A stretch of 64,000 bases of DNA from contig NC_090383.1 of the NCBI RefSeq assembly GCF_036365525.1, positions 120,282,531 to 120,346,530 on the forward strand, in the 5' to 3' direction. Source of the DNA: Heterodontus francisci. Lineage: Eukaryota. Of the stretch, positions 7,841 to 55,689 are shown piece by piece. Below the pieces are notes generated by a model. It was not told the origin of the DNA, did no database searches, and saw only the letters and a list, made by a program, of their open reading frames with translations. The stretch's first letter is position 1. Each line of letters opens with the position of its first letter. The position numbers were made by a program, and so were the translations under genes.

Positions 7841-10800
7841 TGATAAGTCTTTTAAGATTCTAGGATGCTGGCCATTGGGTCCAGGAGACTTGTCAACCTT
7901 TAGTCCCATTAGTTGTCCTTGTACTTTTTCTCTAGTGATTGTTTTAAGTTCGTCCCTCCCTTTTGCCTCTTGATTTTCTGCTATTTTTGGAATGTTTTTG
8001 CATCTTCTACTGTGAAGACAGATACAAAATACTTGTTCAAAATCTCTGCCATTTTCTTGTTTCCCATTATTAATTCCCCAGTCTCATCCTCTAAGTGACC
8101 AATACACTTCCTTTTTGTATATTTGTAGAAGCTTTTACCATCTGTTTTTATACTTCTTGCTAGTTTACTCTCAGACTCTAATTTCTCCAACTTTGTTTAA
8201 TCATCCTTTGCTGGTTTCTAAAACTTTCCGAATCTTCAGGCCTATCACTAATCTTTGCAGCATTGTACACCTTTACTTTCAATTTGATACCATACTTAAC
8301 TTCTTTATCAGCCACAGATGATGCATCCTTCTCATAGAATCTTTCTCAATGGAATGTATCTTTGTTGAGAGTTATGAAATATCTCCTTAAACGTCTACCA
8401 CTGCTTTTCTACCGTCTTACAGTTCAACTTATTTTCGCAGTCCACTTTCGCCAAGTCCATCTTTCTATCTGTGTAATTGCCTTCATTTCAGTTCAAGACA
8501 CTAGTTGAAGACCCAAACTTCTCACCCTCAAGCTGAATGTGAAATTTTATCATGTTATGATCACTCTTGCCTACAGGATCGTTTGCTATGAAGTAATTTA
8601 TTAATCTTGTCTCAGTAGACATTACCAGGTTTTAAATAGCCTGCTCCCGGGTTGGTTCCAGAAGGTATTGTTCTACGAAACTGTCCCTAATATACTCTAT
8701 GAACTCATCCTCCAGGCTACCTTTGCCAATTTAGTTAGACCAACTATATCAAGCTTAAAATCACCCACAATTATTGCAATAACTTTCCTACAAGCCCCAA
8801 TTTTTTCCTCGATTTATACTCTGGCCTACAGTGTAGCTCCTGTTAGACGGCCTATAAACTACTCCCATCAGTGACCTCTTTCCTTTGTTATTTCTTTTAT
8901 CCACCCAAACTGACTCTACATTTTGATCTTCTGAGCCAAGATCATTTCTTATTGCACTGATCTCATCAATTATTAACAGAGTTCCCCCACATGCTTTTCC
9001 TTTTTTCCTATCCTTCTGAAATGTCAAATATCCTTGTATATTTAGCTCCTAGCATCGGTCACCTTGCAACCATGACTCTGTAAAGGCTATCATACGATAC
9101 ATATTTATTTCTATTTGCACTAACTTGTCTTGTTATGAACGCTAAGTGCATTCAGATAAAAGTTGCAGAATTCAGGACCTCTGACAACACTGTTCTTCCA
9201 AGAAGTTTAAGAAACTGAGTCTGTACACCCTGCAGCATTGGCTATGGCCTTCCACAAGCACAATCCCTATGTTGTTGCCAACCTGGATCTCCCCCCTCAG
9301 CTCACCCTTAGCTGTTGGTGCTCCTTTTCCTCCTCTTCTTCGTCTCCCCCCCTTCATCAATCCAATCCGGTGCAGGTATCGCAGCACACACGATCAACAT
9401 CTCCTTTTCCAAGAGTAGAGTACAAAGGTCACAATCTCAAACAAACGGATATCACAAAAATGGAGCTGACAATGAACTGAGGGTACAGATCTGAATGCAG
9501 CAATTACATTCACATCGAGCCTCCTTAATTTTAAGCACCTTGATAAAGTTGCGACCAATGCAGTGTCCATTTCCCCGGTAACCATACCGACCCATGGGAA
9601 ACCCATGAATCAGCAGTTGAATTCAATTCAGGTTCTTAATTGCACCACAGGACCCTGATTAATATGTTCATGTGCCTCCCACATCTCCATAAGATTTGCC
9701 AGTGCCAAGAATCAGTGCTGTTATATTGTGGTAATCGGGAACACGTGTTGCTCGATTACAACAATTGAACTCCTCGCCTGACCCTCTCTTGTTCACCATG
9801 AAGTTAAAATTGAGGTCACAACTACTGGGCCTTTCTGGTTTAAGTCCAAGGATCCTGTCAGAAAATAATGAGAGAATATTTCAAATGTCTTTAAGGAGGT
9901 TTGGTAAATTTGGCATCCACCATTGGGCTCTGAAGGGAAATATAGACTGTTTCTGACCCTATGATTGAACTTTTGGCCAAAAACTAACACAAACTACATT
10001 TCCACTGCATCATACAACAGAGTACAACACAGCAGGCTAACAGCAGAGAAACCCACAGAGAAGGGAGACTACGAGTTGAATACTCCTCTCATTGGTGAAT
10101 TAGACCTCAGGGGAAATGTCGTCTGCCAGTGTTAATCCACTGTTAATTGCCATTCTTGTTCCCTCTCAACAGCTGAGTATCAGAGGATCTCATTTCTACA
10201 AAGGAAAACTCCCTACAAACACTATATCAACTTCTTCAATCAAAATCATTCATGACTCCAAATGACTCTGTCAACTCCCATTGCCTGACACAAGGGCTGG
10301 TCTTCATGGACACATCATTTAAAGGGACAATGGTCCTTCACATCTCAGCATGTACTTGGAAATTGACCACATTACTCATATTCCCCTAACATTGTCTTCT
10401 CTGACTCCAAGGTAAAGATGCCCTACAACTAGTAAAGAAATACAGCCGAGTTCTTCCACTCCTTCATTCTACTTCCTGAAGCAATTACACTTTTTCCATT
10501 TTAATATTATGGAGAACACAACACAGTAGAATAATCCCTGAGACTAGGCTGTATTGATTCTTGGTTTTATTGTTGCTTTCCATCAGATTTATCCTGAACT
10601 TTAACTGGGACTTGAGAATTCCTGTAGTCTGTTCTATGACACTATGTGTAGTGACATGGGCTGTTATGCATATGTATCTATTGCCCACCCAAACCCCAGC
10701 CTGCAGCAGCCTTACTGGAGTCCATAAGGCACAAATGCAAGGGACCGCTTTCTGAGGCACTAAGGATCTTACAGCCTTGGTGCAAACAAAGGAGTTGAAT

Positions 10801-11262
10801 TCCAGGGCTGAGGTGAGAGTCACTGCCCTTGGCACCAAGGCAGCATTTGACTGAGTGTGGCATCAAGGTTTGCCAGCAAAATTGATGTCAGTGGGAATTG
10901 GGGGAAAACACTCCACTGGTTGGAGTCACACCTAGCGCAAAGGAAGATGGTTCTAGTTGTTGGGGGCCAATCATCATAACATCAGAACATCAATTCAGGA
11001 GTTCCTCAGGGTAGTGTCCTAGGTCCAACCATCATCAAGTGCTATATCAGTGACCTTCCTTCAATCATAAGGTCAGATTAGGGATGTTCATTGATTACAC
11101 AGTCTTCAGTACCATTTGAGACTCCTCAGATACTGAAGCAGTCCGTGCTCACATGCAGCAAGAACCTGGGCATTATCCAGGCTTGGGCTAAAAAGTGGGA
11201 AGTAACATTCGCGTCACACAAGTGCCAGGCAATGACCATCTGCAACAAGAAAGAATCTAACC

Positions 11263-13095
11263 TTCATGTTGGCCTTCATAACGAGAGGATTTGAGTACAG
11301 GAGCAGGGATGTCTTGCTGCAATTATACAGGGCCTTGGTGAGGCCTTCTTCTTCTTCTTTGGGCCTCCTTATCTCGAGAGACAATGGATACGCGCCGGCG
11401 CATGCCTGGGCAAATTTATGGAGGTTGAGAGTTGCCCAGTCGTCAAAACCCCCCTCTCAGCCTTTCTGGTGGGGTCCAAAGGAGTGCAGGACACGACGTT
11501 TGGCACCAGTATGGCTGCAGGAACTGCCGGAAACATGCCAAAGGTGACACATGACCGCCTACGAGGTTCCGCTCCGGATTTTCTGTTAGGGTTTACTCCC
11601 TTAGCCTTGGTCTCTCCCGAGACGCCCACAAGGCAGTGGGGTTGTTGGGGCCCCTACACAGGTGTAGGATGGTGCCGGTTGGAGGAGGGGATGCAAGGGG
11701 GAGGGGTAGAGGGAGGAGGGGGGGGTGCAGGGGAAGGGGGTGCGGGGTGAAGATGGTGCGAGGGGGGGGCGGGCTGGGACGGGGTTGTGAGGGGGTGAGC
11801 TGAGAGGGTGGAGCAGGGAAGGGGACGGGGGTGGGGGGGGTGGAAGGGGGGTAAAGGGGGGGGAGGGGGGGTGGAATCTGGTGCAGGTAATAAGCCATTT
11901 CCTCAGTGCCCACCATCGACGTCCGGAAAGCTCAACCACGTCCTTCGGGAGGTGAAGCATCATTTGGCAGACTTAGAGGTGATTACATTTGCTAAGGGTT
12001 TTTTTTTCTGCAGTGGTTTAAATAAAGGCATGCAGCATTGCCGACAGTGCGCTGCAGATGCTCTCCGAGCCATCTCCCGCGGGCGCTTTGAAGTTGCGGC
12101 CGGGGGGGCCGTTCGTGGATGTTTTGGGTGTTCGGGGCACCTTTTCACAGGACTTCTCTCGGGTCCCGCAGCTCCTTCTTCACCTCAATGGACTTACCGC
12201 ATGCCGTGGCTGCAGACACTCTGGACTGTGAAGACAGCAGGATCGGAGATTAAAGTATCGGCAGCTGTTCTCGTCAGTTTCATCCGGATCAATTTCATTG
12301 AGAAAACAAAGAGCAGGTGTGGCTGGGGGAGGGCAGTGGGCCCAGGTAACATACACTAAACTAACTGTTAACTTTTAGATAGGGCTAAAATGAACTGATT
12401 TAAAGAGCCAGGGGAATTTAAACAGTTTAAGAGGGCAGATTGGGGGAGAAAACGTTAGGGATGGGAGCAGATGGCCATGGATAGAGTTGAACAGCAAGGG
12501 AGCTTCCTAGGGAGCTTCCAGCCCAGGAGCCATCTTGGAACCAAGTGAGGCCACACCTGGAATATTGTGTGCAATTTGAGGAAGGATGTTCTTGCTATAG
12601 AGGGAGTGCAGCGAAGGTTTACCAGACTGATGGTGGGACTGACGTATGAGGAGAGATTGAGTCGGTTAGGATTATATTCGCTGGAGTTCAGAAGAGTGAG
12701 GGGGGATCTCATAGAAACCTATAAAATTCTAACAGGACTTTACAGGGTAGATGCAGGAAGGATGTTCCCGATGGTGGAGGAGTCCAGAACCAGGGGTCAT
12801 AGTCTAAGGATACGGAGTAAACCTTTCAGGACTGAGATGAGGAGAAATTTCTTCACCCAGAGAGTGGTGAGCCTGTGGAATTCACTATCACAGAAAGCAG
12901 TTGAGGCCAAAACATTGTATGTTCTCAAGAAGGAGTTAGATATAGCTCTCGGGTCTAAAGGGATCAAAGAGTATGGGGCGAAAGAGGGAACAGGCTACTG
13001 AGTTGGATGATCAGCCATGATCATAATGAATGGCGGAGCAGGTTCGAAGGGCTGAATGGCCTACTCCTGCTCCTATTTTCTATGTTTCTATAATT
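11263..13095 (+). mobile_element. 5'-truncated CR1 LINE (11263-11345 plus 12545-13095)
   Basis: [27 protein letters not shown]|HLEYCV... continues across the insert; flanked by 7-bp TSD TCTAACC (11256-11262, 13096-13102). Confidence 0.8.
11346..12544 (-). mobile_element. Non-autonomous, internally deleted RTE derivative
   Basis: 8-bp TSD GTGAGGCC (11338-11345, 12545-12552). 11346-11395 matches the RTE 3' tail (~51220-51262) and is joined to sequence nearly identical to the RTE 5' UTR (54747-55095). Confidence 0.85.
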
Positions 13096-15072
13096 TCTAA
13101 CCAAGTCCCCTTGACGTTGAACAGTATTACCATTGCTGAATCCCCCACAATCAACATCTTGGAAGTTATCATTGACCAGAAACTTAAGTGGACCAGCCAT
13201 ATAAATACTGTGGCTATTAGAGCTGGTCAGAGGCTGGGAATTCTGCAGCGAGTAACTCACCTCCTGACTCCCCAAAGTCTCTCCACCATCTACAAGGCAC
13301 AAGTCAGGAGGTGATGGAATACTCTCCACTTGCCTGGATGAATGCGGTGCCAACAGCACACAAGAAGCTTGACACCATCCAGACATAGCAGTCTGCTTGA
13401 TTGGCACCATTTCCACCACCTTAATCACTCACTCCCTCCACCACTAGCACACTATATCGCTGTTCCTTCACTGCTGATGGGTCAAGCACCTGGAACTCTC
13501 TTCCTAACAGCACTGTGGGTGTACCTACACCAGATGGACTGCAGCGGTTCAAAAGGGCCGCTCACCACCATCTTTTGAAGGGCAATTAGAGATGGACAAT
13601 AAATGCTGGCCTAGCCAGGGACGCCCACATCCCAAGAATCAATAACAAAGACGGCCAAAGACGGCTTTCTTAGCGTGTAGACTCTGGTGAGTGTAGGGAA
13701 GGGTCATTCTGACTGTGAATACCTCCATTCTAACCTTGTTTCCATATCCTCCTCAATAGCGTAATTGGATTCTCATTGGGAATTCCCATTGGGAAGCTCA
13801 TGGCACCATTACAAAGTAGATGAGTTAAGCTAATCGCAAAATTCCTGACTGAAGCATTGAAATACTAAAGACACCAATATTCTGGCAAAGTAACATCAAC
13901 CTTCAATAACTGTACATTAACTGGCCTCCTCAATACACTATTCACTCAGGGATACCTTCCTGCATCTCCTACTATCACTTACATAGTGGTGGTAAGTACT
14001 TGGGACAGAGGTTTGGGGAAAATGGATCAAAGGGTTTAGTCATTTGTATGAGACAGATCAGGCTCCTGACAGACCAGAAAGGGACTGATGGTTTTTGGGA
14101 AGATAATTCAGGTGCAGTTTTGTAGCAACAGGTTTGTGGCAGTAATCCCCAAAACTTGATTTACTCAGTTTAACACCCCAACGCTTTCAATCACCATTTC
14201 GCACCACAACTCCCCCTATCATTGTCTCCAGATGTTACCCACAGCAAATAATAGGCTGATTGGTTTATAGATACCTGACTTATCCCTTTCTCTCCTTTTG
14301 AACTGATCTGCTACGTTGGATCTTTCCAGTTCTCTGGCAATATCTAAGAAAGTTTGATAGACTGTGATTAGAGCCTTCACTATTTCCGCTGGCTTCCCTC
14401 AGAATACAGCCATTAGGCCAAATCCTTCTACCCCTTGTGCACCTCCTTATTTATATACTGTTACTGCTTTATCTATAGTCACCTTAACTATTTGCTTCTT
14501 TTGTATCTGTTCATTCGCTCTATCACACTCTTCTATATAAAAAAACAAGGATTAGGAATGCTGATGAAGTTTATATGGTTATCAAACCACAGGAACGTGT
14601 ACAATTATCATATTTGGTGCTGTTTGATTTTGGTACTCAGTATGACATTCTCAGAATGCTGAGCTCAACTCCTAGGGTAGGACAGTGGTGAATCTGCCCC
14701 TACAGTAGGACACAGCCTTCTTCCTCTTCTCTCCGCTCTCCAATCTATCTACATTGTGTTATTGTATATGTATTGCACAGTGACTCATTGGTTTTCTAAC
14801 TTTCTTAAGCATAGTGTAGTGTGATCTGGTAAAGATACGCAGCCACATTCATCCGAGGAGGCCCAGACGTCTCTACTCCACTTCTCTGCACTGCTGCTCC
14901 TCCCATCTGGAGGCCACTTTGTCACTTTGCCACATTTTAAGCTTAAGCAGCAGATCCGTCAAAATATAAAGTCACCAAGTGGTAGCGTGGATGTAGAAGA
15001 AAGAGAATGTGAATGTTGAATATTCATATTAATTAGTAATTTCCTCCTTTGGTGGTTGAATGCTGGTTGATG

Positions 15073-15469
15073 AGGGTGGAGTAGATGGTGCAGTCACTGA
15101 ACTAGTAATCCAGCAGTCCAGGTAAATGCCAAGGGGTCATGGGTTCAATCCCACCACAGCAGCCAGTGGAATTTAAATTCAACTAATTAGTAAAATCTGA
15201 AATTGAAAGCTAGTCTCTGTAATGGTGCCATGAAACTATCATCGATTGTCGTAAAAACCCATCTGGTTCACTAATGTCCTTTAGGAAAGGAAATCTGTTC
15301 TTTCATGATCTGACTTACATGTGACTCCAGACCCGTGTGGTTTACTCTTAACTGCCCTCTGAAATGTCCTAGCAAGACACTCAGTTGTCAAGGGCAATTA
15401 GAGATGTACAACAAGTACAAGTACAACAAGTGCCAGCAATGCCCACGTCCCAGGAAAGAATAAAAAAAA
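15073..15469 (+). mobile_element. tRNA-derived SINE sharing head and tail with the 31677-34960 LINE
   Basis: B-box-like GGTTCAATCC; body 'aaaaacccatctggttcactaatgtcctttagg'; tail 'tcaagggcaattag...gaataaaaaaa'. Confidence 0.8.
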
Positions 15470-18950: not shown

Positions 18951-20260
18951 TTTAGTTTAGTTTTAGTTTAGAGGTATAGCACTGAAACAGGCCCTTCGGC
19001 CCACCGAGTCTGTGCCGACCATCAACCACCCATTTATACTAATCCTACACTAATCCCATATTCCTACCACATCCCCACCTGTCCCTATATTTCCCTACCA
19101 CCTACCTATACCTCTTCTTTGGCCTCCTTATCTCGAGAGACAATGGATAAGCGCCTGGAGGTGGTCAGTGGTTTGTGAAGCAGCGCCTGGAGTGGCTATA
19201 AAGGCCAATTCTAGAGTGACAGGCTCTTCCACAGGTGCTGCAGAGAAATTTGTTTGTCGGGGCTGTTCCACAGTTGGCTCTCCCCTTGCGCCTCTGTCTT
19301 TTTTCCTGACAACTACTAAGTCTCTTCGACTCGCCATACTTTAGCCCCGTCTTTATGGCTGTCCGCCAACTCTGGCGAACGCTGGCAACTGACTCCCACG
19401 ACTTGTGATCAATGTCACAGGATTTCATGTCGCGTTTGCAGACGTCTTTAAAGCGGAGACATGGACGGCCGGTGGGTCTGATACCAGTGGCGAGCTCGCT
19501 GTACAATGTGTCCTTGGGGATCCTGCCATCTTCCATGCGGCTCACATGGCCAAGCCATCTCAAGCGCCGCTGACTCAGTAGTGTGTACAAGCTGGGGGTG
19601 TTGGCCGCTTCAAGGACTTCTGTGTTGGAGATATAGTCCTGCCACCTGATGCCAAGTATTCTCCGAAGGCAGCGAAGATGGAATGAATTGAGACGTCGCT
19701 CTTGGCTGGCATACGTTGTCCAGGCCTCGCTGCCGTAGAGCAAGGTACTGAGGACACAGGCCTGATACACTCGGACTTTTGTGTTCCGTGTCAGTGCGCC
19801 ATTTTCCCACACTCTCTTGGCCAGTCTGGACATAGCAGTGGAAGCCTTACCCATGCGCTTGTTGATTTCTGCATCTAGAGACAGGTTACTGGTGATAGTT
19901 GAGCCTAGGTAGGTGAACTCTTGAACCACTTCCAGAGCGTGGTCGCCAATATTGATGGATGGAGCATTTCTGACGTCCTGCCCCATGATGTTCGTTTTCT
20001 TGAGGCTAATGGTTAGGCCAAATTCATTGCAGGCAGCCGCAAACCTGTCAATGAGACTCTATACTAGGGGCAATTTATAACGGCCAATTTACCTACCAAC
20101 CTGCAAGTCTTTTGGCTGTGGGAGGAAACCGGAGCACCCGGTGAAAACCCACGCAGACACAGGGAGAACTTGCAAACTCCACACAGGCAGTACCCAGAAT
20201 TGAACCCGGGTCGCTGGAGCTGTGAGGTTGCGGTGCTAACCACTGCGCCACTGTGCCGCC
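18951..20260 (-). mobile_element. tRNA-derived SINE (HE1/V-SINE-like), split by an RTE insertion
   Basis: Minus strand starts ggcggcacagTGGCGCAGTGGttagc (A-box) with GGTTCAATTC (B-box); (CTAAA)n tail at ~18951-18970. Confidence 0.8.
19112..20058 (-). mobile_element. 5'-truncated RTE LINE
   Basis: ORF 19165-19986 is nearly identical to the C-terminus of ORF 51272-54463; 6-bp TSD CTATAC (19106-19111, 20059-20064). Confidence 0.92.
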
Positions 20261-27647: not shown

Positions 27648-27724
27648 AATTAAAGTCCCCTAATATCACCACTCTGGTTCTTGCACATTACTGTGATTTC
27701 CCTGCTGATTTGTTCCTCTAATTT

Positions 27725-28060
27725 ATTTTTAATTTGTTCATGGGATGTGGGCATCACTGGCCAGGCCAGCATTTATTGTCCATCCCTAATTACCCTTGAG
27801 AAGGTGGTGGTGAACTGCCTTCTTGAACCGCTGCAGTCCATGTGGGGTAGGTACACCCACAGTGCTGTTAGGAAGGGAGTTCTAGGCTTTTGACCCAGTG
27901 ACTGTGAAGGAACGGTGATGTAATTCCAAGTCAGGATGGTGTGTGACTTGGAGGGGAACTTGCAGGTGGCGGTGTTCCTATGCATCAGCTGCCCTTGTCC
28001 TTCAATGTGGTAGAGGTTACGGGTTTGGAAGGTGCTCTCTAAGGAACCTTGGCGTGTTGC
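27725..28060 (-). mobile_element. 3' end of the 31677-34960 LINE family
   Basis: Reverse-complement match to ~34630-34955. Confidence 0.8.
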
Positions 28061-28995
28061 TTATCAAATGCCATATGAAAGTCCATATAAATAATATCCA
28101 TAGATATTCCCCTGTCCATTACTTTAGTCACCTCTTCAAAAAATTCAATCAGATTCATCAGGTATGACCTACCCTTTACAAATCCATGCTGACTCTCTCT
28201 GATCAGCTGAAAATTGGTGATGGGTCAATGGGACTTTGTGTGAGTTAGGATACAGGCATCAGAATTTTGGATGAGTTCAAATTTATGGAGGGTGGAAGAT
28301 GTGAGAGCAGCCAGGAGAGCAGTTGTGTCTGTAGGTAACAAAAGCACGGGTGAGGGTTTCAGCAGCAGATGGACAGGGATAGAGACAGGCAATATTATAG
28401 AAGTGGAAGAAGGCGGCCTAAGTATGTCCAAGTTACAACCTCACAATTTCCTTTGCATTAGAATTGTGAAAATGTAGGTAAAAAGAGGAACTCTTTCAAA
28501 CCCGTTTGTTCTTGTACTTCTCTCTTATTTGTGACATCTTTTACCAGACTGACTGCAATGATATGCGTTTTTTTTTTCAAGTGTCTTCCTTAAATTTTTC
28601 TATCCACAACCCAACTGAGATCAGAAAATCCCCAGTGCTGGGTGTCAGCCCCTGCTATGTTAAAATTAAATGTACATGTCATCAAACCCACAAACAAAGC
28701 CAGTCTTTTAGCAACAGTCAATCTAAAAATTAGCTAATGTGGTATTATTTAGATTTAACTTCCTCTTTCACTGCTTCCTTAATGATTTCCAACAGGAACA
28801 GATCTGGGTCCCTCATATAGATCATTATCATCTATAATTGGGTCACAATCAAACTCTTCTGATAACATTGGTGTATGTCTCACAAAAGTTGTAAGTCTGG
28901 AAGACAGCTGCCAGTATAAGGAGCCAATAAAGAAAGACTTGCATTTCTATAGCACCTTTCACATCCACAGGACTTCCCAAAGCCTTTTACAGCCA

Positions 28996-29270
28996 GAATT
29001 CAATTAATAAATCTGGAATTAAAAGCTAGCCTAATGATGGCCATTGTCGATTGTCATAAAAACCCATCTGGTTCACTGATGTCCTTTAGGGAAGGAAATC
29101 TGCTGTCCTTACCTGATCTGGCCTACATGTGACTCCAGACCCACAGCCATGTGGTTGACTCTGAAATGTCCTCTGAAATGGTCTAGCAAGCCACTTAGTT
29201 GTATCAAATCAGGGCAATAAATGCTGACCTAATCTGTGATGCCCACATCCCATGAATGAATAAAAAAAAA
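28996..29270 (+). mobile_element. 5'-truncated SINE of the 15073-15469 family
   Basis: Same body and 'cccatgaatgaataaaaaa' tail. Confidence 0.8.
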
Positions 29271-30641: not shown

Positions 30642-31676
30642 GTAAGTAAATGCCCAGAGTTTAGTCACCCAATCTGGGTTTAGTTTCTTACAATTATGTT
30701 TTTGAGTTTAATTTATTGATTATGGGTGATGAGTTTGAGGCAGGTGTTTTGTAGACAGATATTTATGTTTAAGAATTGAGATAGTTTGGGCTTTCTCATA
30801 CTTCACTGGGAATTTACACCGTCTGATATGACACTGAGCCACGCAGCCAAGTTATCTTACTCTGGGTCAGTAGAGTGACTGCTGGGGGGTGAAGATCATT
30901 CAGGTCAACTGCTTTGCTCTTCAAGGTTGAGAAGCCAGCAAGAACCACTATGCAGACTCATGAACAAAGTCACTTGGGTGAGGCAGACTGGCACTGCTTG
31001 TGAAGTCAAGGCCAATAATAAGCTAAAAGAAAAGGCTGACAAAAATGCAAGGCAAAGTGGAAATAAAGGAGATAAAAGCAACAATGGGATACAGAGAAAG
31101 TAAATAGGTGAAAAAAGGAAGACAGAAAAAACTTGTGAAGAATATCAAAGCTGTTCTCCTTGGAGCAGAGGAGTTGAGAGGGGATTTGATAGAGTTGTAC
31201 AAGATTATGACAGTTCTAGGTAAGGTAGACCAAGAGAAACTGTTCCAATTAGTTGATGATACAAGGACTAAGGGACACAGGTTTAAGGTTTTGGGCAAGA
31301 GATGCGAGTGGGATGTGAGGAACATTTTTTACACAGCGAGTGGCAATGACCTGGAACTTCCTGCCTACGAAGGTGGTGGAAGCAGAGACGATCAATGATT
31401 TCAAAAGGAAATTGGATGGGCACATGGGGGAAATAAACTTGCAGGATTAGCGGTAGAGCGGGGAATGGGACTGACTGGATTGCTCTACAGAGAGCCGGAA
31501 TGGACTCGATGGGCTGAATGGCCTCCTTCTATGCCACAAATAGCTTTATGAATCTGTGACTGTAAGGCAAATGTTTTTGTAAATATATTTAAGAGAAAAA
31601 GAGTGGCTTAGAGAGAATGTGGGCCCAATAAAGACAGATGCAGGCAAAAGACGTAATAAGGAAATGGCAGACTTGA

Positions 31677-34600
31677 GGGTCGGTGGTGGCGTAGTGGTAT
31701 TATCACTGGACTAGTAACCCAGAGACCCAGGGTATTCCTCTGGGGACATGGGTTCAAATCCCACCACAGCAGAAGGTGGAATTTGAACTTAATAAAAATC
31801 TGGAATTAAAAACTAGTCTAATAATGGCCATGAAACCATTGTTGATTGTTGTAAAAACCCATCTGGTTCACTAATGTCCTTTAGGGAAGGAAATCTGCTC
31901 TCCTTACCTGGTCTGGCCTATATGTGACTCCAGACCCACAGCAATGTGGTTAACTCTTACATGCCCTCTGAAATGGCCTAGCAAGCCACTCAGTTGTATC
32001 TAACTGCTACAAAGTCAATAAAAAGGAATGAAACCGGACGGACCACCCGGCATCAACCTAGGCACCGGAAACGACAACGGCAAACCCAGCCCTGTCGACC
32101 CTGCAAAGTTATCCTTACTAACATCTGGGGGTTTGTGCCAAAGTTGGGAGAGCTGTCCCACAGACTAGTCAAGCAACAGCCTGACATAGTCATACTCACG
32201 GAATCATAACTAACAGACAATGTCCCAGACACTGCCATCACCATCCCCGGGTATGTCCTGTCCCACCGGCAAGACAGACCCAGCAGAGGTGGTGGCACAG
32301 TGGTATACAGTAGGGAGGGAGTTGCCCTGGGAGTCCTCAACATCGACTCCGGACCTCATGAAGTCTCATGGCATCAGGTTAAAATATGGGCAAGGTAACC
32401 TGCTACTGATTACCACCTACCGCCCTCCCTCAGCTGATGACTCAGTACTCCTCCATGTTGAACACCACTTGGAGGAAGCACTGAGGGTGGCAAGGGCACA
32501 AAATGTACTCTGGGTGGGGGACTTCAATGTCCATCACCATGAGTGGCTCAGTAGCACCACTACTGACCGAGCTGGCCGAGTCCTAAAGGACATGGCTGCT
32601 AAACTGGGTCTGCGGCAGGTGGTGGGGGAACCAACACGAGGGAAGAACATACTCGACCTCGTCCTCACCAATCTGCCTGCCGCGGATGCATCTGTCCATG
32701 ACAGTATTGGTAGGAGTGACCACCGCACAGTCCTTGTGGAGACGAAGTCCCGCCTTCACATTGAGGATACCGTCCATCGTGTTGTGTGGCACTATCACCG
32801 TGCTGAATGGGATAGATTTCGAACGGATCTAGCAATGTAAAACTGGGCATCCATGAGGCGCTGTGGGCCATCAGCAGCAGCAGAATTGTACTCAACCATA
32901 ATCTGTAACCTCATGGCCCGGCATATCCCCCACTCTACCATTACCATCAAGCCAGGAGACCAACCCTGGTTCAATGAAGAGTACAGGAGGGCATGCCAGG
33001 AACAGCACCAGGCATACCACAAAATGAGGTGTCAACCTGGTGAAGCTACAACCCAGGACTACTTGCATGCCAAACTGCGTAAGCAGCATGCGATAGACAG
33101 AGCTAAGCGATCCCATAACCAACGGATCAGATCTAAGCTCTGCAGTCCTGCCACATCCAGCCGTGAATGGTGGTGGACAATTAAACAACAGATTGGAGGA
33201 GGTGGCTCCACAAATATCCCCATCCTCAATGATGGGGGAGCCCAGCACATCAGTGCGAAAGATAAGGCTGAAGCATTTGCAACAATCTTCAGCCAGAAGT
33301 GCCGAGTTGATGATCCATCTCGGCCTCCTCCTGAAGTCCCCAGCATCACAGATGCCAAACCTCAGTCAATTCGATTCACTCCACGTGATATCAAGAAACA
33401 ACTGAAGGCACTGGATACTGCAAAGGCTATGGGCCCTGACAATATTCCGGCAATAGTACTGAAGGCCTGTGCTCCAGAACTTGCCGCGCCCCTAGCCAAG
33501 CTGTTCCAGTACAGCTACAACACTGGCAACTACCCTGCAATGTGGAAAATTGCCCAGGTATGTCCTGTACACAAAAAGCAGGACAAATCCAACCCGGCCA
33601 ACTACCGCCCCATCAGCCTACTCTCAATCATCAGTAAAGTGATGGAAGGTGTCATCAACAGTGCAATCAAGCGGCACTTGCTTAGCAACAACCTGCTCAG
33701 TGATGCTCAGTTTGGGTTCCACCAGGGCCACTCAGCTCCTGACCTCATTACAGCCTTGGTTCAAACATGGACAAAAGAGCTGAACTCAAGAGGTGAGGTG
33801 AGAGTGACTGCCCTTGACATCAAGGCAGCATTTGACCGAGTATGGCATCAAGGAGCCCTAGCAAAACTGGAGTCAATGGGAATCAGGGGAAAACTCTCCG
33901 CTGGTTGGAGTCATACCTAGCGCAAAGGAAGATGGTTGTGGTTGTTGGAGGTCAATCATCTGAGCTCCAGGACATCACTGCAGCAGTTCCTCAGGGTAGT
34001 GTCCTAGGCCCAACCATCTTCAGCTGCTTCATCAATGACCTTCCTTCAATCATAAGATCAGAAGTGGGGATGTTCGCTGATGTTCAGCACCATTCGCAAC
34101 TCCTCAGATACCGAAGCAGTCCGTGTAGAAATGCAGCAAGACCTGGGCAATATCCAGGCTTGGGCTGATAAGTGGCAAGTAACATTCGCGCCACACAAGT
34201 GCCAGGCAATGACCATCTCCAACAAAAGAGAATCTAACCATCTCCCCTTGACATTCAATGGCATTACCATTGCTGAAACCCCCACTATCAACATCTTAGG
34301 GGCTACCATTGACCGAAAACTGAACTGGAGTAGCCATATAAATACCGTGGCTACAAGAGCAGGTCAGAGGTTAGGAATCCTGTGGCGAGTAACTCACCTC
34401 CTGACTCCCCAAAGCTTGTCCACCATCTACAAGGCACAAGTCAGGAGTGTGATGGAATACTCTCCACTAGCCTGGATGGGTGCAGCTCCAACAACACTCA
34501 AGAAGCTCAACACCATCCAGGACAAAGCGGCCCGCTTGATTGGCACCCCATCTACAAACATTCACTCCCTCCACCACCGACGCACAGTGGCAGCAGTGTG

Positions 34601-34960
34601 TACCATCTACAAGATGCACTGCAGCGATGCACCAAGGCTCCTTCGATAGCACCTTAAAACCCGCGACCTCTACCAATTAGAAGGACAAGGGCAGCAAATA
34701 CATGGGAACACCACCACCTGCAAGTTCCCCTCCAAGTCACACACCATCCTGACTTGGAACTATATCGCCGTTCCTTCACTGTCGCTGGGTCAAAATCCTG
34801 GAACTCCCTTCTTAACGGCACTGTGGGTGTACCTACCTCACATGGACTGCAGCGGTTCAAGAAGGCAGCTCACCACCACCTTCTCAAGGGCAATTAGGGA
34901 TGGGCAATAAATGCTGGCCTGGCCAGCGACGCCCACATCCCATGAATGAATAAAAAAAAA
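31677..34960 (+). mobile_element. Near full-length CR1/L2-group LINE with a tRNA-derived head and ORF2 only (APE plus RT, a few stops and frameshifts)
   Basis: A-box TGGCGTAGTGG 31687-31697 and B-box GGTTCAAATCC 31751-31761; APE motifs (PDIVILTES, VGDFN, SDH); RT motifs (ALDIKAAFDRVWH, VPQGSVLGP, MFAD); poly(A) ends at 34960. Confidence 0.9.
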
Positions 34961-36780
34961 GATAAACAAAAACTTTGTAGCTGTTCAGATTTGATACATG
35001 GATCAATACATGTGAAAAAATACAATGGAGTAAATGTTGACATTTAAGATAGACAATCTCCAGGACCTGATGGTTTCCATGCCAGGATATCAAAAGAAGG
35101 TGGTGCGGAAATTGCATATGTGTTTGTCATAATTTTCCAAAGCACTCTCAAATCGAAATTATGTCCTTCGGCTGAAAAATTGCAAATGTCATTCTGTATT
35201 TTAAGAAGGGAGGGAGGCAGAAACCAAGTCATTGCAGACCTGTGACCTTAATGCCACTTGCGGGAAGTTATTCGAATATATCATCAGAGACAGAGTGACT
35301 GAGCATTTGGGTAAGTATGAGCTGATCGAAGAATCAGCATGAATTTGAGAAGGGTCGTCATGTCTGGCTAAACTAGTTGAATGTGTTTGGGAGGTCACTA
35401 TCATGATGAATAGGCAGTGTCTATGGATATTGACAGTATGGATTTCCAGAAAAGCATTTGATCAGGTTCCACACAGATTATCAAAAATCAGAACATGTGG
35501 AATTAAAGGCAACATTGTGACACTATTTCTAAATTTGTGTTGACACCAAGTTGGGGGAAATAGTAATCAGGAGGACTGCAACAAATTACAAGAAGACATT
35601 AATAAACTTTCAGAATGGGCATATAATTAGCAAATGAATTTCAACATAGGTAAATGTGAGATATTACATTTTGGTAAGAAAAATAAGGCGATTACATATT
35701 ACTTAGAAAATAAGTGTCTCAATGGGGTCGAGGAGTGAAGGGGTCTGAGAGTACAAATACACAAATTATTAAAACTAGTAACACAGATTGACAAAGCTAT
35801 AAAAGCAAGCCAGGCACCATGGTTTATTTCTAGAGGGATAGAATTGAGACGTAAAGTTATACGAAACTTGTGTCGAAACTTGGTCAGACTTGGAGTACTG
35901 CTTACAGCCGTTCTGGTCGCCATGTTATAAAAAAAGATATAGAGGCACTGTAGAGAGTTCAGAAATGATTTACAAGGATGATATCAGAAATGTGGAGTTA
36001 TACCTACCAGGAGAGGATAAACAGGCTGGGTCTCTTTCCTCTTGAAAAGAGAAGGCTGAGGAGTGACCTAATATCGATCTTTAAAATTATGAAAGATTTT
36101 GATAAGCACAGAGAGATTGCTTCCACTTGTAGGAAGAGAAAACTGGAGGACATAAATCTAAGATATAGTCACCAAGAAATCCAATAGGGAATTCAGAAGA
36201 ATCTGCCTTACCCAGAGAGTGGTGAATGTTGGACTGACTACCACAGAGAGTGGTTGAACCAAATAGTATAGATGCATTTAAGGGAAAACTAGACAAGGAT
36301 ATGAGGGAGAAGGGAATACAGGGTTATGCTGACAGAGTTAAATGAGGAAAGACGGAAGGAGGTTTGAATAGAGCATAAATACCTGCATGAACTGGATGGG
36401 CCAAATGGCCTGTCTCTGTGCTGTATATCCTGTGTGGCCTGGGTTGGTAATTGGTTGGGAGATAGGAAACAGTGATAGGTACTCGTATGAGTAGGGTGTG
36501 ACAAGTGGTGACAAGGGATTGGTACTAGGGACTCGGCTTTTCAGCATATATATTTGTGATTTGGATCGAGGAATAGAGAGTTGCATATCCAAGTTTGCAG
36601 ATGGCACTGAGTTAGGATGCAGAATCGGTTGTGCAGATGGAAACAAGAAGTTACAAAGGACCATAAAAGAATTGAGTGGGCAGAACTATGGTGGGTGGAG
36701 TTTATTATAAAGGAGTGTGTGGTCATTCCTTTGAATCCAAGAAAGACAGATTGGAATATTTTCTTAATATGTTTTATTTG
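34961..36780 (+). mobile_element. Old decayed CR1 fragments; host of the 31677-34960 insertion (left part ~31560-31676)
   Basis: NKEMADL before the insertion continues as NK.FV after it; RT remnants downstream. Confidence 0.65.
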
Positions 36781-39809: not shown

Positions 39810-42730
39810 TGGGAGTAGGGTGGGGGTGTAGTGGGGTGTGGGTGTGTGTTGGGGGGTGGTGGGGTGTGTGGGGGTTGTGTCGGGGGGTGTGGGTGGAGGG
39901 AGTGGGGGTGTGTGGGGTGGGGATGGGGAGTGTGTGTCGGGCAATGAGAGGTGTTGCATGGGGGGTGCAGGGAAGATGGGGGTGTGTGCGGGGATGGAGG
40001 TGTGTGGGGGGGATGTGGGTGTGTGTGGGGGGATGGGAGGATCGGGGGAGGTGTGGGGGGATGGGTGTGGGGGGGGGGGATGGGGGGGGTGTGGGGGGAT
40101 GGGAAGGTGGGAGGATGGGGGGTGTGGGGGGATCGGGGTGAGGGAGGATGGGAGGGTGGGAGGATAGGGGGGGTATGGGGGGATGGGGGTGTGGGAGGAT
40201 GGGGGGTGTGTGTAGGGGGATGGGGGGTTTGGGGGGGCGATGGGAGGGTGGGAAGATGGGGGGTGTGTGTGGGGGGATGGGAGGGTGGGAGGATGGAGGG
40301 GTGTGGGGGGATGGGGGTGTGGGAGGATGGGGGTGTGGGAGGATGGGGGTGCAGGGGGGATGGGGGGTGTGGGGGGGGATGGGGGTGTGGGGGGGGGATG
40401 GGGGTGTGGGGGGAGATGGGGGTGTGGGAGGATGGGGGGTGTGGGGGGGATGGGGGTGTGGGAGGATGGGGATTTGGGGGGGATGGGAGGGTGGGAGGAT
40501 GGGGGGGTGTGGGGGGGGATGGGGGTGTGGGAAGATGTGGGTGTGGGGGGAGATGGGGGTGTGGGAGGATGGGAGGTGTGGGGGAGATGATGGTGTGGGA
40601 GGATGGGGGGGTGTGTGGGGGAATGGGTGTGTGGGGGGGGATGGGAGGGTGGGAGGATGGGGGTGTGTGTGGGGGGATGGGGGGGTGTGGGGGGATGGGA
40701 GGGTGGGAGGATGGGTGGTTTGTGGGGGGGGATGGGAGGGTGGGAGGATGGGGGATGGTGTGTGGGGGGGGATGGGAGGGTGGGAGGATGGGGGGTCTGT
40801 GGGGGGCGATGGGAGGGTAGGAGGATTGGGGCTGCAGGGAGGATGGGGGGGTGTGGGGGGGGGGTGTGGGAGGATGGGGGGTGCAGGGAGGATGGGGGGG
40901 GTGTGGGGGGATGGGAGGGTGGGAGGATGGGGGGTGCAGGGAGGATGGGGGGTGTGGGGGATGGGGGTGTGGGAGGATGGGGGGTGCAGGGAGGATGGGG
41001 GGGGGTGTGGGGGGATGGGGGGTGCAGGGAGGATGGGGGGGTGTGGGGGGATGGGGGTGTGGGAGGATGGGGGGTGCAGGGAGGATGGGGGGGTTTTGGG
41101 GAATGGGGGTGTGGGGGGATGGGGGTGCAGGGAGGATGGGGGGGTGTGGGGGGGATGGGGGTGTGGGGGGATGGGGGGTGCAGGGAGGATGGGGGGGTGT
41201 GGGGGGATGGGGGTGTGGGAGGATGGGGGGTGCAGGGAGGATGGGGGGGTGTGGGGGGGATGGGGGTGTGGGGGGATGGGGGGTGCAGGGAGGATGGGGG
41301 GGGTGTGGGGGGGATGGGGGGGGGTGTGGGAGGATGGGAGGTTGGGAGGATGGGGGGGGAGTCTGGGGGGATGGGGGGTGCAGGGAGGATGGGGGGGTGT
41401 GGGGATGGGGGGGTGTGGGGGGGGGTGGGGGGGTGGGAGGATGGGGGTGTGTGTGTGGGGGGATGGGGGGTTTGTGAGGGGGGATGGGAGGGTGGGAGGA
41501 TGGGGGGGTTTGTGGGGGGATGGGGGTGTGGGAGGATGGGGGTGCAGGGAGGATGGGGGGTGTGGGGGGATGGGGGTGTGGGAGGATGGGGGGGGTGCAG
41601 GGAGGATGGGGAGTGGACTGGGGGGATGGGGGGTGGGAGGATGGTGGAGGGGTGTGGGAGGATGGGGGGTGCAGGGAGGATGGGGTTGGTGTGGTGGGAT
41701 GGGGGTGTGGGAGGATGGGGTGTTTGGGGGGGATGGGAGGGTGGGAGGATGGGGGGTGTGTGGGGGGATGGGAGGGTGGGAGGATGGGGGTGGTGTGGTG
41801 GGATGGGGGTGTGGGAGGATGGGGTGTTTGGGGGGGGATGGGAGGGTGGGAGGATGGGGGGTGTGTGGGGGGATGGGAGGGTGGGAGGATGGGGGTGGTG
41901 TGGTGGGATGGGGGTGTGGGAGGATGGGGGGTGTGGGGGGATGGGGGTGTGGGAGGATGTGGGGTGTGGGGGGAGATGGGGGTGTGGGAGGATGGGGGGG
42001 TGTGTGGGGGGATGGGTGTGTGGGAGGATGTGGGGTGTGGGGGGGAATGGGGGTGTGGGAGGATGTGGGGTGTGGGGAGAGATGGGGGTGTGGGAGGATG
42101 GGGGGTTTGGGGGGGATGGGTGTGTGGGAGGATGTGGGGTGTGGGGGGGAATGGGGGTGTGGGAGGATGTGGGGTGTGGGGAGAGATGGGGGTGTGGGAG
42201 GATGTGGGGTGTGGGGAGAGATGGGGGTGTGGGAGGATGGGGGGTTTGGGGGGGATGGGAGGGTGGGAGGATGGGAGGTGTGGGGGGATGGGGGTGTGGG
42301 AGGATGTGGGGTGTGGGGGGAGATGGGGGTGTGGGAGGATGGGGGGGTGTGTGGGGGATGGGTGTGTGGGAGGATGTGGGGTGTGGGGGGAGATGGGAGG
42401 GTGGGAGGATGGGGGGTGTGTGGGGATGGGGGGGTGTGGGGGGGGATGGGAGGGTGGGAGGATGTGGGGTGTGGGGGGATGGGGGGTGTGGGGGGGATGG
42501 GAGGGTGGGAGGATGGGGGGTGTGGGGGGAGATGGGGGTGTGGGAGGATGGGGGGTGTGGGGGGAGATGGGGGTGTGGGAGGATGGGGGGGTATGGGGGG
42601 AGATGGGGGTGTGGGGGGGGATGGGAGGGTGGGAGGATGGGGGGGTGTGGGGGGATGGGGGTGTGGGAGGATGGGGGGTGCAGGGAGGATGGAGGTATTG
42701 TGTGGGGGGGGGGGTTGTTGTGTGGGGGGT
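39810..42730 (+). repeat. G-rich minisatellite / low-complexity array (units such as GTGGGAGGATGGGGGT and GTGGGGGGATGGGAGG)
   Basis: About 2.9 kb with very few C on the + strand and dense G-runs. Confidence 0.95.
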
Positions 42731-43399: not shown

Positions 43400-43720
43400 G
43401 GAGACGATGACATGGTGGTAATGTCAAGGAACTAGTAATCCAGAGGCCCAAGCTAGTACCATGGGGACAGAGACTCAAACCTGGAATTGACAGCTAGTCT
43501 CAGTAATGTGAAACCATCGTCGGTTGTCGTAAAGCCCCATCTGGGAAGGAAATCTGCCGTCCTTACTTGGTCTGGCCTACATGTGACTCCAGACCACAGC
43601 AATAGGGTTGACTTTTAACTGCCCTCTGAAATCGCCTAGCAAGCCACTCAGTTGTCAAGGGCAATTAGAGATGGGTAACAAATGCTGGCCTTGCCAGTGG
43701 TGCCCACATCCCATAAAAAT
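43400..43720 (+). mobile_element. SINE of the 15073-15469 family
   Basis: Same head, body and tail, with junction 'cactcagttgtcaagggcaattag'. Confidence 0.75.
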
Positions 43721-50037: not shown

Positions 50038-51219
50038 GTAAGTACTTTCTATATTACATTGATTTTATTCCAAATAATATTACCATGCAAACATCTCATT
50101 TAAATAAATCGTTGTCACTTTTACAGTAACAACAGTGAAAATTTAACCACAGAATAGAGGGTAAAATCTGGGCCAAACTCAACTAGTTTTTAACAGAACA
50201 AATGACTCAATCTAGCCTTTACTTACAGGGTGAAACAGTATAAGCATACACCTCCTCAATCAACCACACCAGTTTCAGTGAGAGTCTCTTTATATCTGCT
50301 CATGTGCAATTCCAATTAATGCCTTCCATCTGCATATCATTAAACATAATTGATATACAATTAACACCCACCCCCGGTTCCAGAGTGTCAGCTAAGAAAA
50401 AATCTAGTCCCTCATCTCCAATGCAACATACCTCTTTGAGAGGCTAGTGCACGTTTCCTATGAACACCATGTAGAGAAAGGATTGAGGGTAACTGGGGCA
50501 CATATTGTAGTCTGGCTCGGCAGCTGCAATATCCATCATCAATAGTATCAAGATTAACGGAGCTGGCGTGTCCTGAAGCTGCCAGACTGGGCTGGTGGTA
50601 GGTGGTGAGGGAACTACTTATTTAGCCTTGTTCTCCTCAATCTACAACAACAGCTTGCATTTATATAGCACCTTTAATGTAGTAAAATGTCCCAGGGTGC
50701 TTCACAGAACTGTTTTCAAACAGCGTTTGACACCGAGCCACATAAGGAGAGATTCGGACAGGTGACACATGTTGTAACTTTGATTTATGTCAGAACCATT
50801 GAAGATGATACTGGACCGAGGGGATTCACCTATGAATTCGGAAACTTTAGAAGCTGATTGATCTAGAGTAAGAGACCCAAGAATATAACAGGCGGAACTG
50901 TGTCACAGGGCTTCTCCTGTAGCAGAGGTGGCAAAGCTAGGTCTCCACAGACTTGGGAAACTAGGTGTGCCAGAGCCAATTCCAAGAGGCTGCCAATCAC
51001 CTGAGGTACAAATTCATCACTTATTCTGCCCACTCTCCTCTTCCAAATCCATGGGAGCCACTGGCAAGGCCCAGTGGAATGTCCAAGCTAAACAGTGTGG
51101 TTAGAGATGAAATACAGAGCTTGACAGCATCAATACAGTGGCTGGAGGTCTGTGTAAAAATGTAACATCATTAAAAAAAGATTGCACAGAGAACGATGCA
51201 GAAACAACAGGACAGGAAC

Positions 51220-54200
51220 TTCTTTTGGGCCTCCTTATCTCGAGAGACAATGGATACGCGCCTGGAGGTGGTCAGTGGTTTGTGAAGCAGCGCCTGGAGT
51301 GGCTATAAAGGCCAATTCTGGAGTGACAGGCTCTTCCACAGGTGCTGCAGAGAAATTTGTTTGTTGGGGCTGTTGCACAGTTGGCTCTCCCCTTGCGCCT
51401 CTGTCTTTTTTCCTGCCAACTACTAAGTCTCTTCGACTCGCCACAATTTAGCCCTGTCTTTATGGCTGCCCGCCAGCTCTGGCGAATGCTGGCAACTGAC
51501 TCCCACGACTTGTGATCAATGTCACACGATTTCATGTCGCGTTTGCAGACGTCTTTATAACGGAGACATGGACGGCCAGTGGGTCTGATACCAGTGGCGA
51601 GCTCGCTGTACAATGTGTCTTTGGGGATCCTGCCATCTTCCATGCGGCTCACATGGCCAAGCCATCTCAAGCGCCGCTGACTCAGTAGTGTGTATAAGCT
51701 GGGGATGTTGGCCGCTTCAAGGACTTCTGTGTTGGAGATATAGTCCTGCCACCTGATGCCAAGTATTCTCCGAAGGCAGCGAAGATGGAATGAATTGAGA
51801 CGTCGCTCTTGGCTGGCATACGTTGTCCAGGCCTCGCTGCCGTAGAGCAAGGTACTGAGGACACAGGCCTGATACACTCGGACTTTTGTGTTCCGTGTCA
51901 GTGCGCCATTTTCCCACACTCTCTTGGCCAGTCTGAACATAGCAGTGGAAGCCTTACCCATGCGCTTGTTGATTTCTGCATCGAGAGACAGGTTACTGGT
52001 GATAGTTGAGCCTAGGTAGGTGAACTCTTGAACCACTTCCAGAGCGTGGTCGCCAATATTGATGGATGGAGCATTTCTGACATCCTGCCCCATGATGTTC
52101 GTTTTCTTGAGGCTGATGGTTAGGCCAAATTCATTGCAGGCAGACGCAAACCTGTCGATGAGACTCTGCAGGCATTCTTCAGTGTGAGATGTTAAAGCAG
52201 CATCGTCAGCAAAGAGGAGTTCTCTGATGAGGACTTTCCGTACTTTGGACTTCGCTCTTAGACGGGCAAGGTTGAACAACCTGCCCCCTGATCTTGTGTG
52301 GAGGAAAATTCCTTCTTCAGAGGATTTGAACGCATGTGAAAGCAGCAGGGAGAAGAAAATCCCAAAAAGTGTGGGTGCGAGAACACAGCCCTGTTTCACA
52401 CCACTCAGGATAGGAAAGGGCTCTGATGAGGAGCCACCATGTTGAATTGTGCCTTTCATATTGTCATGGAATGAGGTGATGATACTTAGTAGCTTTGGTG
52501 GACATCCGATCTTTTCTAGTAGTCTGAAGAGACCACGTCTGCTGACGAGGTCAAAGGCTTTGGTGAGATCAATGAAAGCAATGTAGAGGGGCATCTGTTG
52601 TTCACGGCATTTCTCCTGTATCTGACGAAGGGAGAACAGCATGTCAATAGTCGATCTCTCTGCACGAAAGCCACACTGTGCCTCAGGGTAGACGCGCTCG
52701 GCCAGCTTCTGGAGCCTGTTCAGAGCGACTCGAGCAAAGACTTTCCCCACTATGCTGAGCAGGGAGATTCCACGGTAGTTGTTGCAGTCACCGCGGTCAC
52801 CTTTGTTTTTATAGAGGGTGATGATGTTGGCATCGCGCATGTCCTGGGGTACTGCTCCCTCGTCCCAGCACAGGCATAGCAGTTCATGTAGTGCTGAGAG
52901 TATAGCAGGCTTGGCACTCTTGATTATTTCAGGGGTAATGCTGTCCTTCCCAGGGGCTTTTCCGCTGGCTAGGGAATCAATGGCATCACTGAGTTCCGAT
53001 TTGGTTGGCTGTATGTCCAGCTCATCCATGACTGGTAGAGGCTGGGCTGCATTGAGGGCAGTCTCAGTGACAGCATTCTCCCTGGAGTACAGTTCTAGGT
53101 AGTGCTCAACCCAGCGGTCCATCTGTTTGCGTTGGTCAGTGATTATGTCCCCCGATTTAGATTTGAGGGGGGTGATCTTCTTGATGGTTGGCCCAAGAGC
53201 TCTCTTCATGCCATCATACATTCCTCTGATGTTTCCGGTGTCTGAGGCCACCTGAATATGGCTGCATAGGTGTTGCCAGTAGTCGTTTGCGCAACGCCTA
53301 GCTGTTCTTTGTGCAGTACTTCTGGCTGCTTTAAGTGCTGCGGATGTTAAATCGCTGGGGGCTTTCTTGTAGTTCAAAAGTGCAATGCGCTTAGCGGCTA
53401 TGACAGGTTCCAGCTCTTCATTATGAGATTGAAACCAGTCTGCATTTCTCTTCGCACTTTTGCCGTAGGTGGTCAAAGCTGACTCATAGATGGCGTCTCT
53501 GATGTGGGCCCACTTGGTCTCAGCATCCCCTGTGGGAGTGTTTTGAAGGGCTGTTACAAGTGAATTTAGAAATTTTTGTAACAGCTGTGGGTGAGAAATT
53601 CTGCTCGTGTTGATGCGCGGGTGGCCCTTCTGCTTGGAATGATGCAACTTCTTTGGTCTGAGTCTAACCTTGCTGCACACCAGGGAGTGGTCGGTGTCGC
53701 AGTCCGCACTGTGGAAGCTGCGTGTGATTTGAACACTGTTTAAGGCGGCTCGCCTTGTGACAATGAGGTCTAGCTGGTGCCAACGACGTGATCTTGGGTG
53801 CCTCCATGAAACCTGGTGACAGGGTTTAGTGTGAAAGAACGAGTTGGTGATGCAGAGGTTATGATAGGTACACAACTCAAGCAGTCTCTGCCCGTTCTCA
53901 TTCATCCTTCCAACGCCATAGCGCCCAAGGCAGGAGGGCCATGAGTCATGGTCGGCCCCAACCCTGGCATTAAAGTCCCCCAGCAGGAATAGGTGTTCGG
54001 TGTTGGGGATGCTGCTAATGATGTTATGGAGTTGTTCATAGAACTGGTCTTTAGCTTCAGGTGCGGAACAGAGTGTTGGAGCATAGATGCTGAGTAGGTG
54101 TACTGGACCAGAGGTGGTGAGCAGTCGGATGGACAGTATGCGTTCCGAGCCATTTGAGGGAGGCTCTATCATGCTGAGCAAGGAGTTTCTGATGGCGAAG

Positions 54201-55096: not shown

Positions 55097-55689
55097 AGAG
55101 TAAACTACAACAAAATAAAATACAATTTTCCAAAATTCAGTCAGCTTAGCCAGAGTAAATTCTGTGCTCTTGTTACCCTCAATCCTTTCTCCAAGTGATG
55201 TTCATTGGAAGTGTGCACTTGCCTTTCAAAGCGATATGTAGCATTGGAGACAAGGGTCCAGATTTTTACATACCTGACCTACTGGCAGCGACTGGAGAGG
55301 ATGGGGCATTAATTTATAGCAATTAACTTTAATTATACACGGTCAGTCTCAGCTTCGAGCCGATGTTCTGTACTGAGCAACATGGAAACCACAAGTGCCC
55401 ATTTTAAACAGGAAACCAAAGGACAATGATGAGGACACGTGGGGGATTTATCAGGGGATTTAGTAACACCTATTTACATATTCCTCAGGCCTGTAATGAA
55501 GCCCCTGCAGGCTTTCAGCAAAATACTTCTCTCGCAGCAATACCTGCTCTGAGGCTCAGCTGCCCAATCCATGCTTGTGTACTGGATGTGAAGGATCACT
55601 CCGAGTGTGATGTTGGGGAGTCAACGTGCCTGTGGTTTCAGTGGAAATTAGATAGTCATAAACACAGTGCAGGTGAAAGGCAACAACAA

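Follow-up and report, generated by a model that had tools for sequence, protein, structure and literature searches.

The window, that is, the whole 64,000-nt stretch of Heterodontus francisci DNA analyzed here, contains a full-length, decayed LINE with a tRNA-derived head, three SINE or SINE-like copies, and an older CR1 ORF2 that the LINE interrupts (Table 1). The preliminary description had proposed that the sequences on both sides of the element belong to a single CR1 frame, and this held, as the KEMADL and INKNFVAV sides are colinear in another CR1 copy (L167), which aligns with the two flanks in the same order and leaves ~30 nt at the site unexplained. No target-site duplication was found at the window element. 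Since the flanks correspond to the two halves of one older CR1 ORF2, head and body were inserted as a single unit.

Table 1. Coordinates of the LINE, its subregions, its flanks and the related SINEs in the window.
Feature	Position	Strand	Details
SINE, older type	15073..15469	+	Joint GTTG/TCAAGGG
SINE-like copy, 5'-truncated	28996..29270	+	Different joint; 5' part reaches 8 nt deeper into LINE-only sequence
Older CR1 ORF2 fragment, 5' of the insertion	31564..31676	+	Peptide KEMADL
Full-length, decayed elasmobranch Zenon LINE	31677..34960	+	96.8% identity to family majority; first 400 nt compared by eye with published Zenon consensuses
tRNA-derived head with Pol III A and B boxes	31677..31771	+	Sharp family 5' end 10 nt upstream of the A box
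Conserved head block, retained in SINE derivatives, non-Deu, putative function	31845..31996	+	Old/young difference 5% (first 170 nt, 17%)
Candidate readthrough, reinitiation or near-cognate start, ATG-GCC-TAG-CAA...TTG	31973..31996	+	In the frame of the long ORF
Single APE-RT ORF, broken in the window copy	31982..34897	+	975 codons and first Met at codon 285 in family majority
3' stem-loop region common to LINE and SINEs	34884..34960	+	Ends in (GAAT)2 and an A run
Same older CR1 ORF2 resumed, 3' of the insertion	34961..35400	+	Peptide INKNFVAV
SINE, older type, with internal deletions	43400..43717	+	Joint GTTG/TCAAGGG, as in the copy at 15073..15469

The Pol III boxes with which the element had been said to begin were both located by direct reading of the sequence, namely an A box (TGGCGTAGTGG; 31687-31697) and a B box (GGTTCAAATCC; 31751-31761), and ARAGORN called a tRNA-like gene within the head at 31680-31771. 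Rfam returned only a weak tRNA-clan match on the head (E 0.99) and no ribozyme or IRES family in the element. Downstream of the head, we identified pieces of an endonuclease (PF14529, 9e-15) and of an RT (PF00078, 3e-16). The ORF of the window copy carries stop codons as well as four coding indels (near 32385, 33886, 34080 and 34656), and this copy is dead. All three window SINEs match the element in both head and tail, as had been described from the sequence alone.

Other repeats are also present in the window. Two long G/C-rich tandem arrays (39822-42715 and 57335-64000; periods of about 35 and 47) share ~65% likeness in inverted orientation, the second continuing past the window end. Two 950-nt pieces at 19114-20060 and 51219-52167 are 97% identical, which points to a young second LINE family; their minus-strand translation is the C-terminus of an RT, which we take to be of the RTE type. 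In addition, more truncated Zenon pieces of varied ages (68-95% identical to the young family majority) lie at 5674-5735, 6645-7051, 6781-6874, 7568-7849, 10769-11265, 13096-13649, 27723-28061, 50461-50614 and 55150-55204.

A two-anchor pattern for the head-to-ORF junction gave 7,592 exact matches in the genome and none with the reversed control, and a 201-nt junction query gave 2,824 candidates, the 40 of these that were scored being all 96-100% identical. For the analysis of 5' ends and intactness, 39 junction matches besides the window locus were retrieved. Thirty of them start within 18 nt of one base and nine are truncated inside the head; the upstream flanks of the former 30 have no common extension, with four pairs similar via other repeats. 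The preliminary description had asked whether the junction recurs at unrelated loci, which is the case, and whether full-length copies might have a different 5' end with an ORF1; instead, they share a sharp 5' end at the A/B-box head. An intact-ORF copy, which it had suggested looking for, did not turn up among the 39 junction copies, whose longest open frame has 621 codons.

Because loci selected by the junction are biased toward it, a second sample was chosen by an endonuclease motif alone (30 of 58 loci, all insertion variants detected with a pattern one base longer); this sample is blind to the 5' end. Nineteen of these 30 copies run uninterrupted to the 5' end, four reach it with an interruption, five are cut within the head and two before it, so that the head is continuous from the endonuclease in 28. 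Head and body are thus one unit that recurs genome-wide. In this same sample (L250-L279), whose copies all extend at least to the endonuclease start, 23 of 30 attain the extreme 5' end; there is little truncation in the last 440 nt. The young family majority is 3,298 nt long with one 975-codon frame, and the 23 uninterrupted full-length copies (22 retrieved plus that of the window) differ from their own majority by 2.7-5.0%. Beyond this genome, contigs that bridge the junction were found in four other sequencing runs, from three or more other organisms, and two metatranscriptome runs with small shares contain the family over its entire length.

On sequence grounds, the window element is a member of the elasmobranch Zenon LINEs, which have been reported from CarCar, ScyCan, RhiTyp, HypSab and SquAca (Stuart et al., 2026; PMC13343379); a "CR1-Zenon like LINE" also appears in the available text of a whale shark preprint (10.1101/443036). 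According to the main text of PMC13343379, all Zenon elements are without ORF1 and end in poly-A. The family analyzed here has a single APE-RT ORF and no ORF1, and its copies end in (GAAT)n and an A run. The absence of ORF1 noted in the preliminary description was thus borne out, although not as a peculiarity, since it applies to all Zenon elements. The nearest proteins in databases share 36-48% identity; most have 900-1050 aa and are encoded on 3-4 kb contigs, usually with a Met before the endonuclease.

Seven published Zenon consensuses from five shark and ray species have a near-identical head and ORF start (first 400 nt, compared by eye), whereas the hagfish and coelacanth consensuses have other 5' starts, that of coelacanth being of low confidence at its 5' end (PMC13343379, consensuses as published). 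As the published consensuses already open with the head, neither the family nor its sequence is new, but the main text of that study passes over the head: "tRNA" and "promoter" occur 0 times each in it, and the tRNA head, the purge of T-runs, the missing AUG and the SINE derivatives are not discussed. This is therefore a known family with an undescribed architecture.

Searching with a diverged copy as query, we identified an older subfamily, 78-85% identical to the young majority, which bears the head in an older form. In a set of 73 copies, the age scores of head and body are correlated (Spearman 0.89, largely from two clusters), and head and LINE body evolve together. Between the old and young majorities, divergence is 17% over the first 170 nt, 5% over positions 171-320 and ~6% in the ORF; being only 6.4% apart overall, the two subfamilies are not independent tests. 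For distant relatives, 80 metagenome loci were screened with a head profile and with a B-box pattern, and neither revealed the head (27-47% identity, some contigs perhaps being without their 5' end). The hagfish and coelacanth consensuses and these 80 relatives, all without the head, suggest that head capture likely came first.

Several known SINE domains were considered for the head. A first reading as the Deu domain (SacSINE1) was rejected, since the published Deu alignment is unlike the head by eye (supplement of PMC7245038), and screening the element for a 17-nt Deu motif, with 3 mismatches allowed, gave no match. The UCON3 and Meta domains were likewise rejected, with no match by eye. Nor did we recognize a CORE-like stretch in the head. 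The preliminary description had suggested a resemblance to marsupial elements, which would raise horizontal transfer. This idea found no support, as WALLSI4 is a marsupial CORE-SINE (available text of PMC3403934) and no evidence of marsupial transfer was found in either direction. Its occurrence throughout sharks and rays, with more than 84% identity, is what vertical descent of the family would give. The lineage may have received it by an ancient transfer, given that elasmobranch Zenon clusters with crustacean elements (main text of PMC13343379).

Transcription by Pol III from a tRNA-type promoter is expected to start ~10 nt before the A box and to terminate at runs of four or more T. The 5' end of the family lies 10 nt upstream of an A box that is kept in the consensuses of all five shark and ray species, and the internal A and B boxes have tRNA-like spacing, an arrangement that corresponds to a Pol III type-2 promoter. 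Internal T-runs that would stop Pol III, a check raised in the preliminary description, are absent: the sense strand has no TTTT in the young majority (18 on the antisense strand), in the old majority (24 on the antisense strand) or in the window copy. The probability of finding none is 0.003-0.005 under base-composition nulls, 0.07 in a codon-usage shuffle and 0.19 under a dinucleotide model. The ORF contains 4 TTT runs, compared with 12.8 +/- 2.5 in shuffles that preserve codon usage, none of 5000 being as low. Of the 80 relatives, 41 have an open reading of at least 800 codons; all of these have at least 8 TTTT runs and a TTT observed/expected ratio of at least 0.65, compared with 0.17 in shark Zenon. 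Other LINE coding strands of the same genome (33 kb; older and more decayed) contain 4.3 TTTT per kb, and well-preserved Zenon copies 0.3 per kb. The Zenon sense strand is T-poor (20%). This depletion of T-runs resembles the outcome of selection, and the runs could have been purged for reasons other than Pol III. The majority ORF has no TTA (Leu) and no TCG (Ser) among its 975 codons, and 18 Phe residues where the relatives have 36-98; the purge of T-runs seems to have shifted the amino-acid composition.

The first in-frame Met of the ORF is codon 285 in the young majority and 291 in the old one, downstream of the endonuclease, which has a dN/dS of 0.16; purifying selection thus acts on the endonuclease even though no in-frame AUG precedes it. 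From a TAG at family position 305 onward the frame is open, with equal length in both subfamilies, and the commonest length variant among the unbiased copies is -3 nt (6/30). At this point, the family reads ATG-GCC-TAG-CAA and then TTG at position 320, where most SINE joints fall; among ~106 LINE copies per site, the ATG is conserved in 96, the TAG in 81 and the TTG in 97. We infer that initiation probably occurs at the end of the conserved block, by a near-cognate UUG, by reinitiation or by readthrough. In the published whale-shark and dogfish consensuses, the TTG is 1 nt out of register with the endonuclease frame (by eye). A start at the out-of-frame ATG at family position 354 followed by a frameshift was rejected, as 27 of the 34 old copies have ATA there. 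At the protein level, no constraint is seen in the N-terminal extension (6 nonsynonymous changes and 1 synonymous change), and the conserved block folds no better than its shuffles (z -0.5 to -1.7), so that no IRES-like structure is indicated. Non-canonical starts have been discussed for non-LTR elements (available text of PMC3894237).

The reading that we favor, with somewhat better than an even chance of being correct, is that of a Pol III-transcribed, non-canonically translated autonomous LINE that repeatedly produces SINEs by internal deletion. A first alternative sees in the head a SINE or tRNA fragment that was captured and has become a plain 5' UTR or a Pol II promoter; the A and B boxes would then matter only for the SINE derivatives, and the T-poorness would be due to composition or to avoidance of splice and termination signals. 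It would suit the between-subfamily divergence of 17% in the tRNA part against 6% in the body, and it agrees with the moth relatives of Zenon, which are without a Pol III promoter (available text of PMC6740152). It also dispenses with an uncapped 3.3-kb RNA that has 9 upstream AUGs and would be a poor template, and the absence of TTTT alone is marginal against codon usage. However, the 5' end lies 10 nt before an A box that all five species have kept, the TTT depletion withstands the codon-usage control and is absent in the 41 relatives and in the other LINEs of the host, and a capped, scanned mRNA explains the missing in-frame AUG no better. We regard this alternative as rather unlikely, although it deserves serious weight.

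The production of SINEs is recorded in their joints. The preliminary description had given the window SINEs a common joint, "cagttg/tcaaggg", which holds for the copies near 15 and 43 kb; the copy near 29 kb is 5'-truncated and has another joint. The window SINEs retain nothing of the partner LINE but its 5' and 3' ends. Their heads are 78-80% (15 and 43 kb) and 90% (29 kb) identical to the young majority, so that this exact young subfamily is ancestral to none of them. The element had also been described as the apparent parent of a local SINE family; the SINEs do resemble internal-deletion products of head-bearing LINEs, but their parents belong to older subfamilies.

Genome-wide, the common SINE joints have 5,319 matches (among the first 100 listed, 65, 26, 8 and 1 of four lengths), and patterns for longer retention detected 110 and 165 further SINE copies with other joints. 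When joints were mapped onto the LINE (32 of 40 loci passed; the patterns detect only breakpoints near their own anchors), they fell at about 321/3222, 321/3225, 323/3219-3222, 324/3206, 324/3210, 325/3194, 337/3185 and 337/3208, two types being on old heads and one on heads of middle age, while others are on young heads. The SINE with the youngest head (L430; 36 young and 0 old diagnostics) has its own joint. There are thus at least six distinct deletion joints on old, middle and young LINE-subfamily heads, some of which may be nested deletions of one SINE or head exchanges; the head tree (FastTree) is poorly resolved. Several joints retain LINE coding sequence on both sides, which suggests a direction from LINE to SINE; the SINEs are likely internal-deletion products of head-bearing LINEs. 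An origin of the joints by splicing was rejected by inspection, as no GT-AG cut yields them. At L421-L423 (G000:C1:22.61-22.64 Mb), one SINE joint recurs at ~12-kb spacing, suggesting a tandem segmental duplication.

A second alternative concerns this direction only, and holds that an independent SINE lineage is a standing source of heads, which the LINE re-acquires by recombination, the SINEs not being LINE deletions. In its favor, the three commonest joints, which account for 99 of the first 100 listed, differ by 2-nt steps, and the fact that one joint is found on both old and young heads indicates that head exchange between SINE and LINE happens too. Against it, LINE-only sequence is retained on either side of the breakpoint at other joints (up to position 337 and from 3185), young-specific joints are present (L430 and L434), and LINE head and body evolve jointly; we regard it as improbable. 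A single capture of the head by Zenon followed by repeated shedding of SINEs is the likely course; this sequence of capture and then repeated SINE birth is well supported, and we hold it with considerable confidence. The preliminary description had offered head capture and internal deletion as two alternatives; these are not exclusive, and both apparently took place, in sequence.

A mixed or passive mode of transcription, in which host Pol II readthrough followed by processing at the tRNA-like 5' fold (e.g., by RNase P) creates the sharp 5' end, would make use of the coincidence of this fold with the 5' end and of thousands of copies, 39% of whale-shark Zenon-like sequence being intronic. It does not predict T-run purging over 3 kb, however, and the fold is no stabler than its shuffles (z -1.6 and +0.2), so we consider it very improbable. 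Finally, a chance chimera at the window locus, for which no point in favor was found, is refuted by the 7,592 junction matches and by the contigs of four other runs, from other organisms, that bridge the junction, and we give it no weight.

Under the favored reading of a Pol III-transcribed LINE, a Zenon element in the ancestor of sharks and rays would have gained the head through a switch of template to a tRNA or SINE RNA; with its U-runs purged, Pol III could then read the whole 3.3 kb from the head. The uncapped RNA would be translated from the end of the conserved block, either at a near-cognate UUG or, past AUG-GCC-UAG, through reinitiation or readthrough, and a template jump of the RT from the 3' end to the end of the head would yield 0.4-kb SINEs with both the promoter and the RT-recognition tail. 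In its full form, namely an autonomous coding LINE of sharks and rays with a 3.3-kb Pol III RNA, cap-independent non-AUG translation and complete tRNA-SINEs made by one deletion, the proposal seems to us evenly poised.

LINEs are classically protein-coding and transcribed by Pol II, and SINEs non-coding and transcribed by Pol III. A natural 3.3-kb Pol III mRNA across sharks and rays, if real, would break this split, and would offer a system for studying what shapes long Pol III templates and how uncapped Pol III RNAs come to be translated. With either polymerase, a LINE has apparently given birth, on more than one occasion, to complete SINEs with head, body and tail, which bears on the origin of conserved SINE bodies. 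SINE pieces joined to BovB 5' ends are maybe a partial precedent. In the literature searched, with Repbase, Dfam and most subscription journals outside its scope, we came across neither an autonomous LINE described as tRNA-headed or transcribed by Pol III nor an account of the birth of a SINE by a single deletion from a LINE with a SINE promoter.

Compared with known systems, the window element shares with published elasmobranch Zenon its first 400 nt (by eye), its length of ~3.3 kb, a single APE-RT ORF, the absence of ORF1 and the A tail; there is no difference in kind, and it is a family member. Deu-SINEs (SacSINE1, AmnSINE1 and LmeSINE1) are likewise tRNA-headed SINEs of sharks, but their Deu domain is unlike the Zenon head, as judged from the printed Deu alignment (supplement of PMC7245038). 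With marsupial WALLSI4/L2-2_ME, a tRNA-headed SINE is what is held in common, with no further similarity shown. In lepidopteran Zenon, short derivatives made of the 5' and 3' ends (Persaeus) arose at least four times independently (available text of PMC6740152), which parallels the repeated end-to-end derivatives of shark Zenon; Persaeus and its parent, however, have no tRNA homology and no Pol III promoter, whereas the shark Zenon derivatives are tRNA-headed SINEs. Finally, the central segments of SINEs can derive from LINE 5' regions, with only RTE and Vingi listed as donors in the available text of Kojima (2018; PMC5786205). In the pairs of tRNA-SINE and LINE and the bipartite SINEs treated there, the 3' tail is common to SINE and LINE, as it is here, but in bipartite SINEs the head was added after the deletion, whereas in shark Zenon the autonomous LINE itself bears the head.
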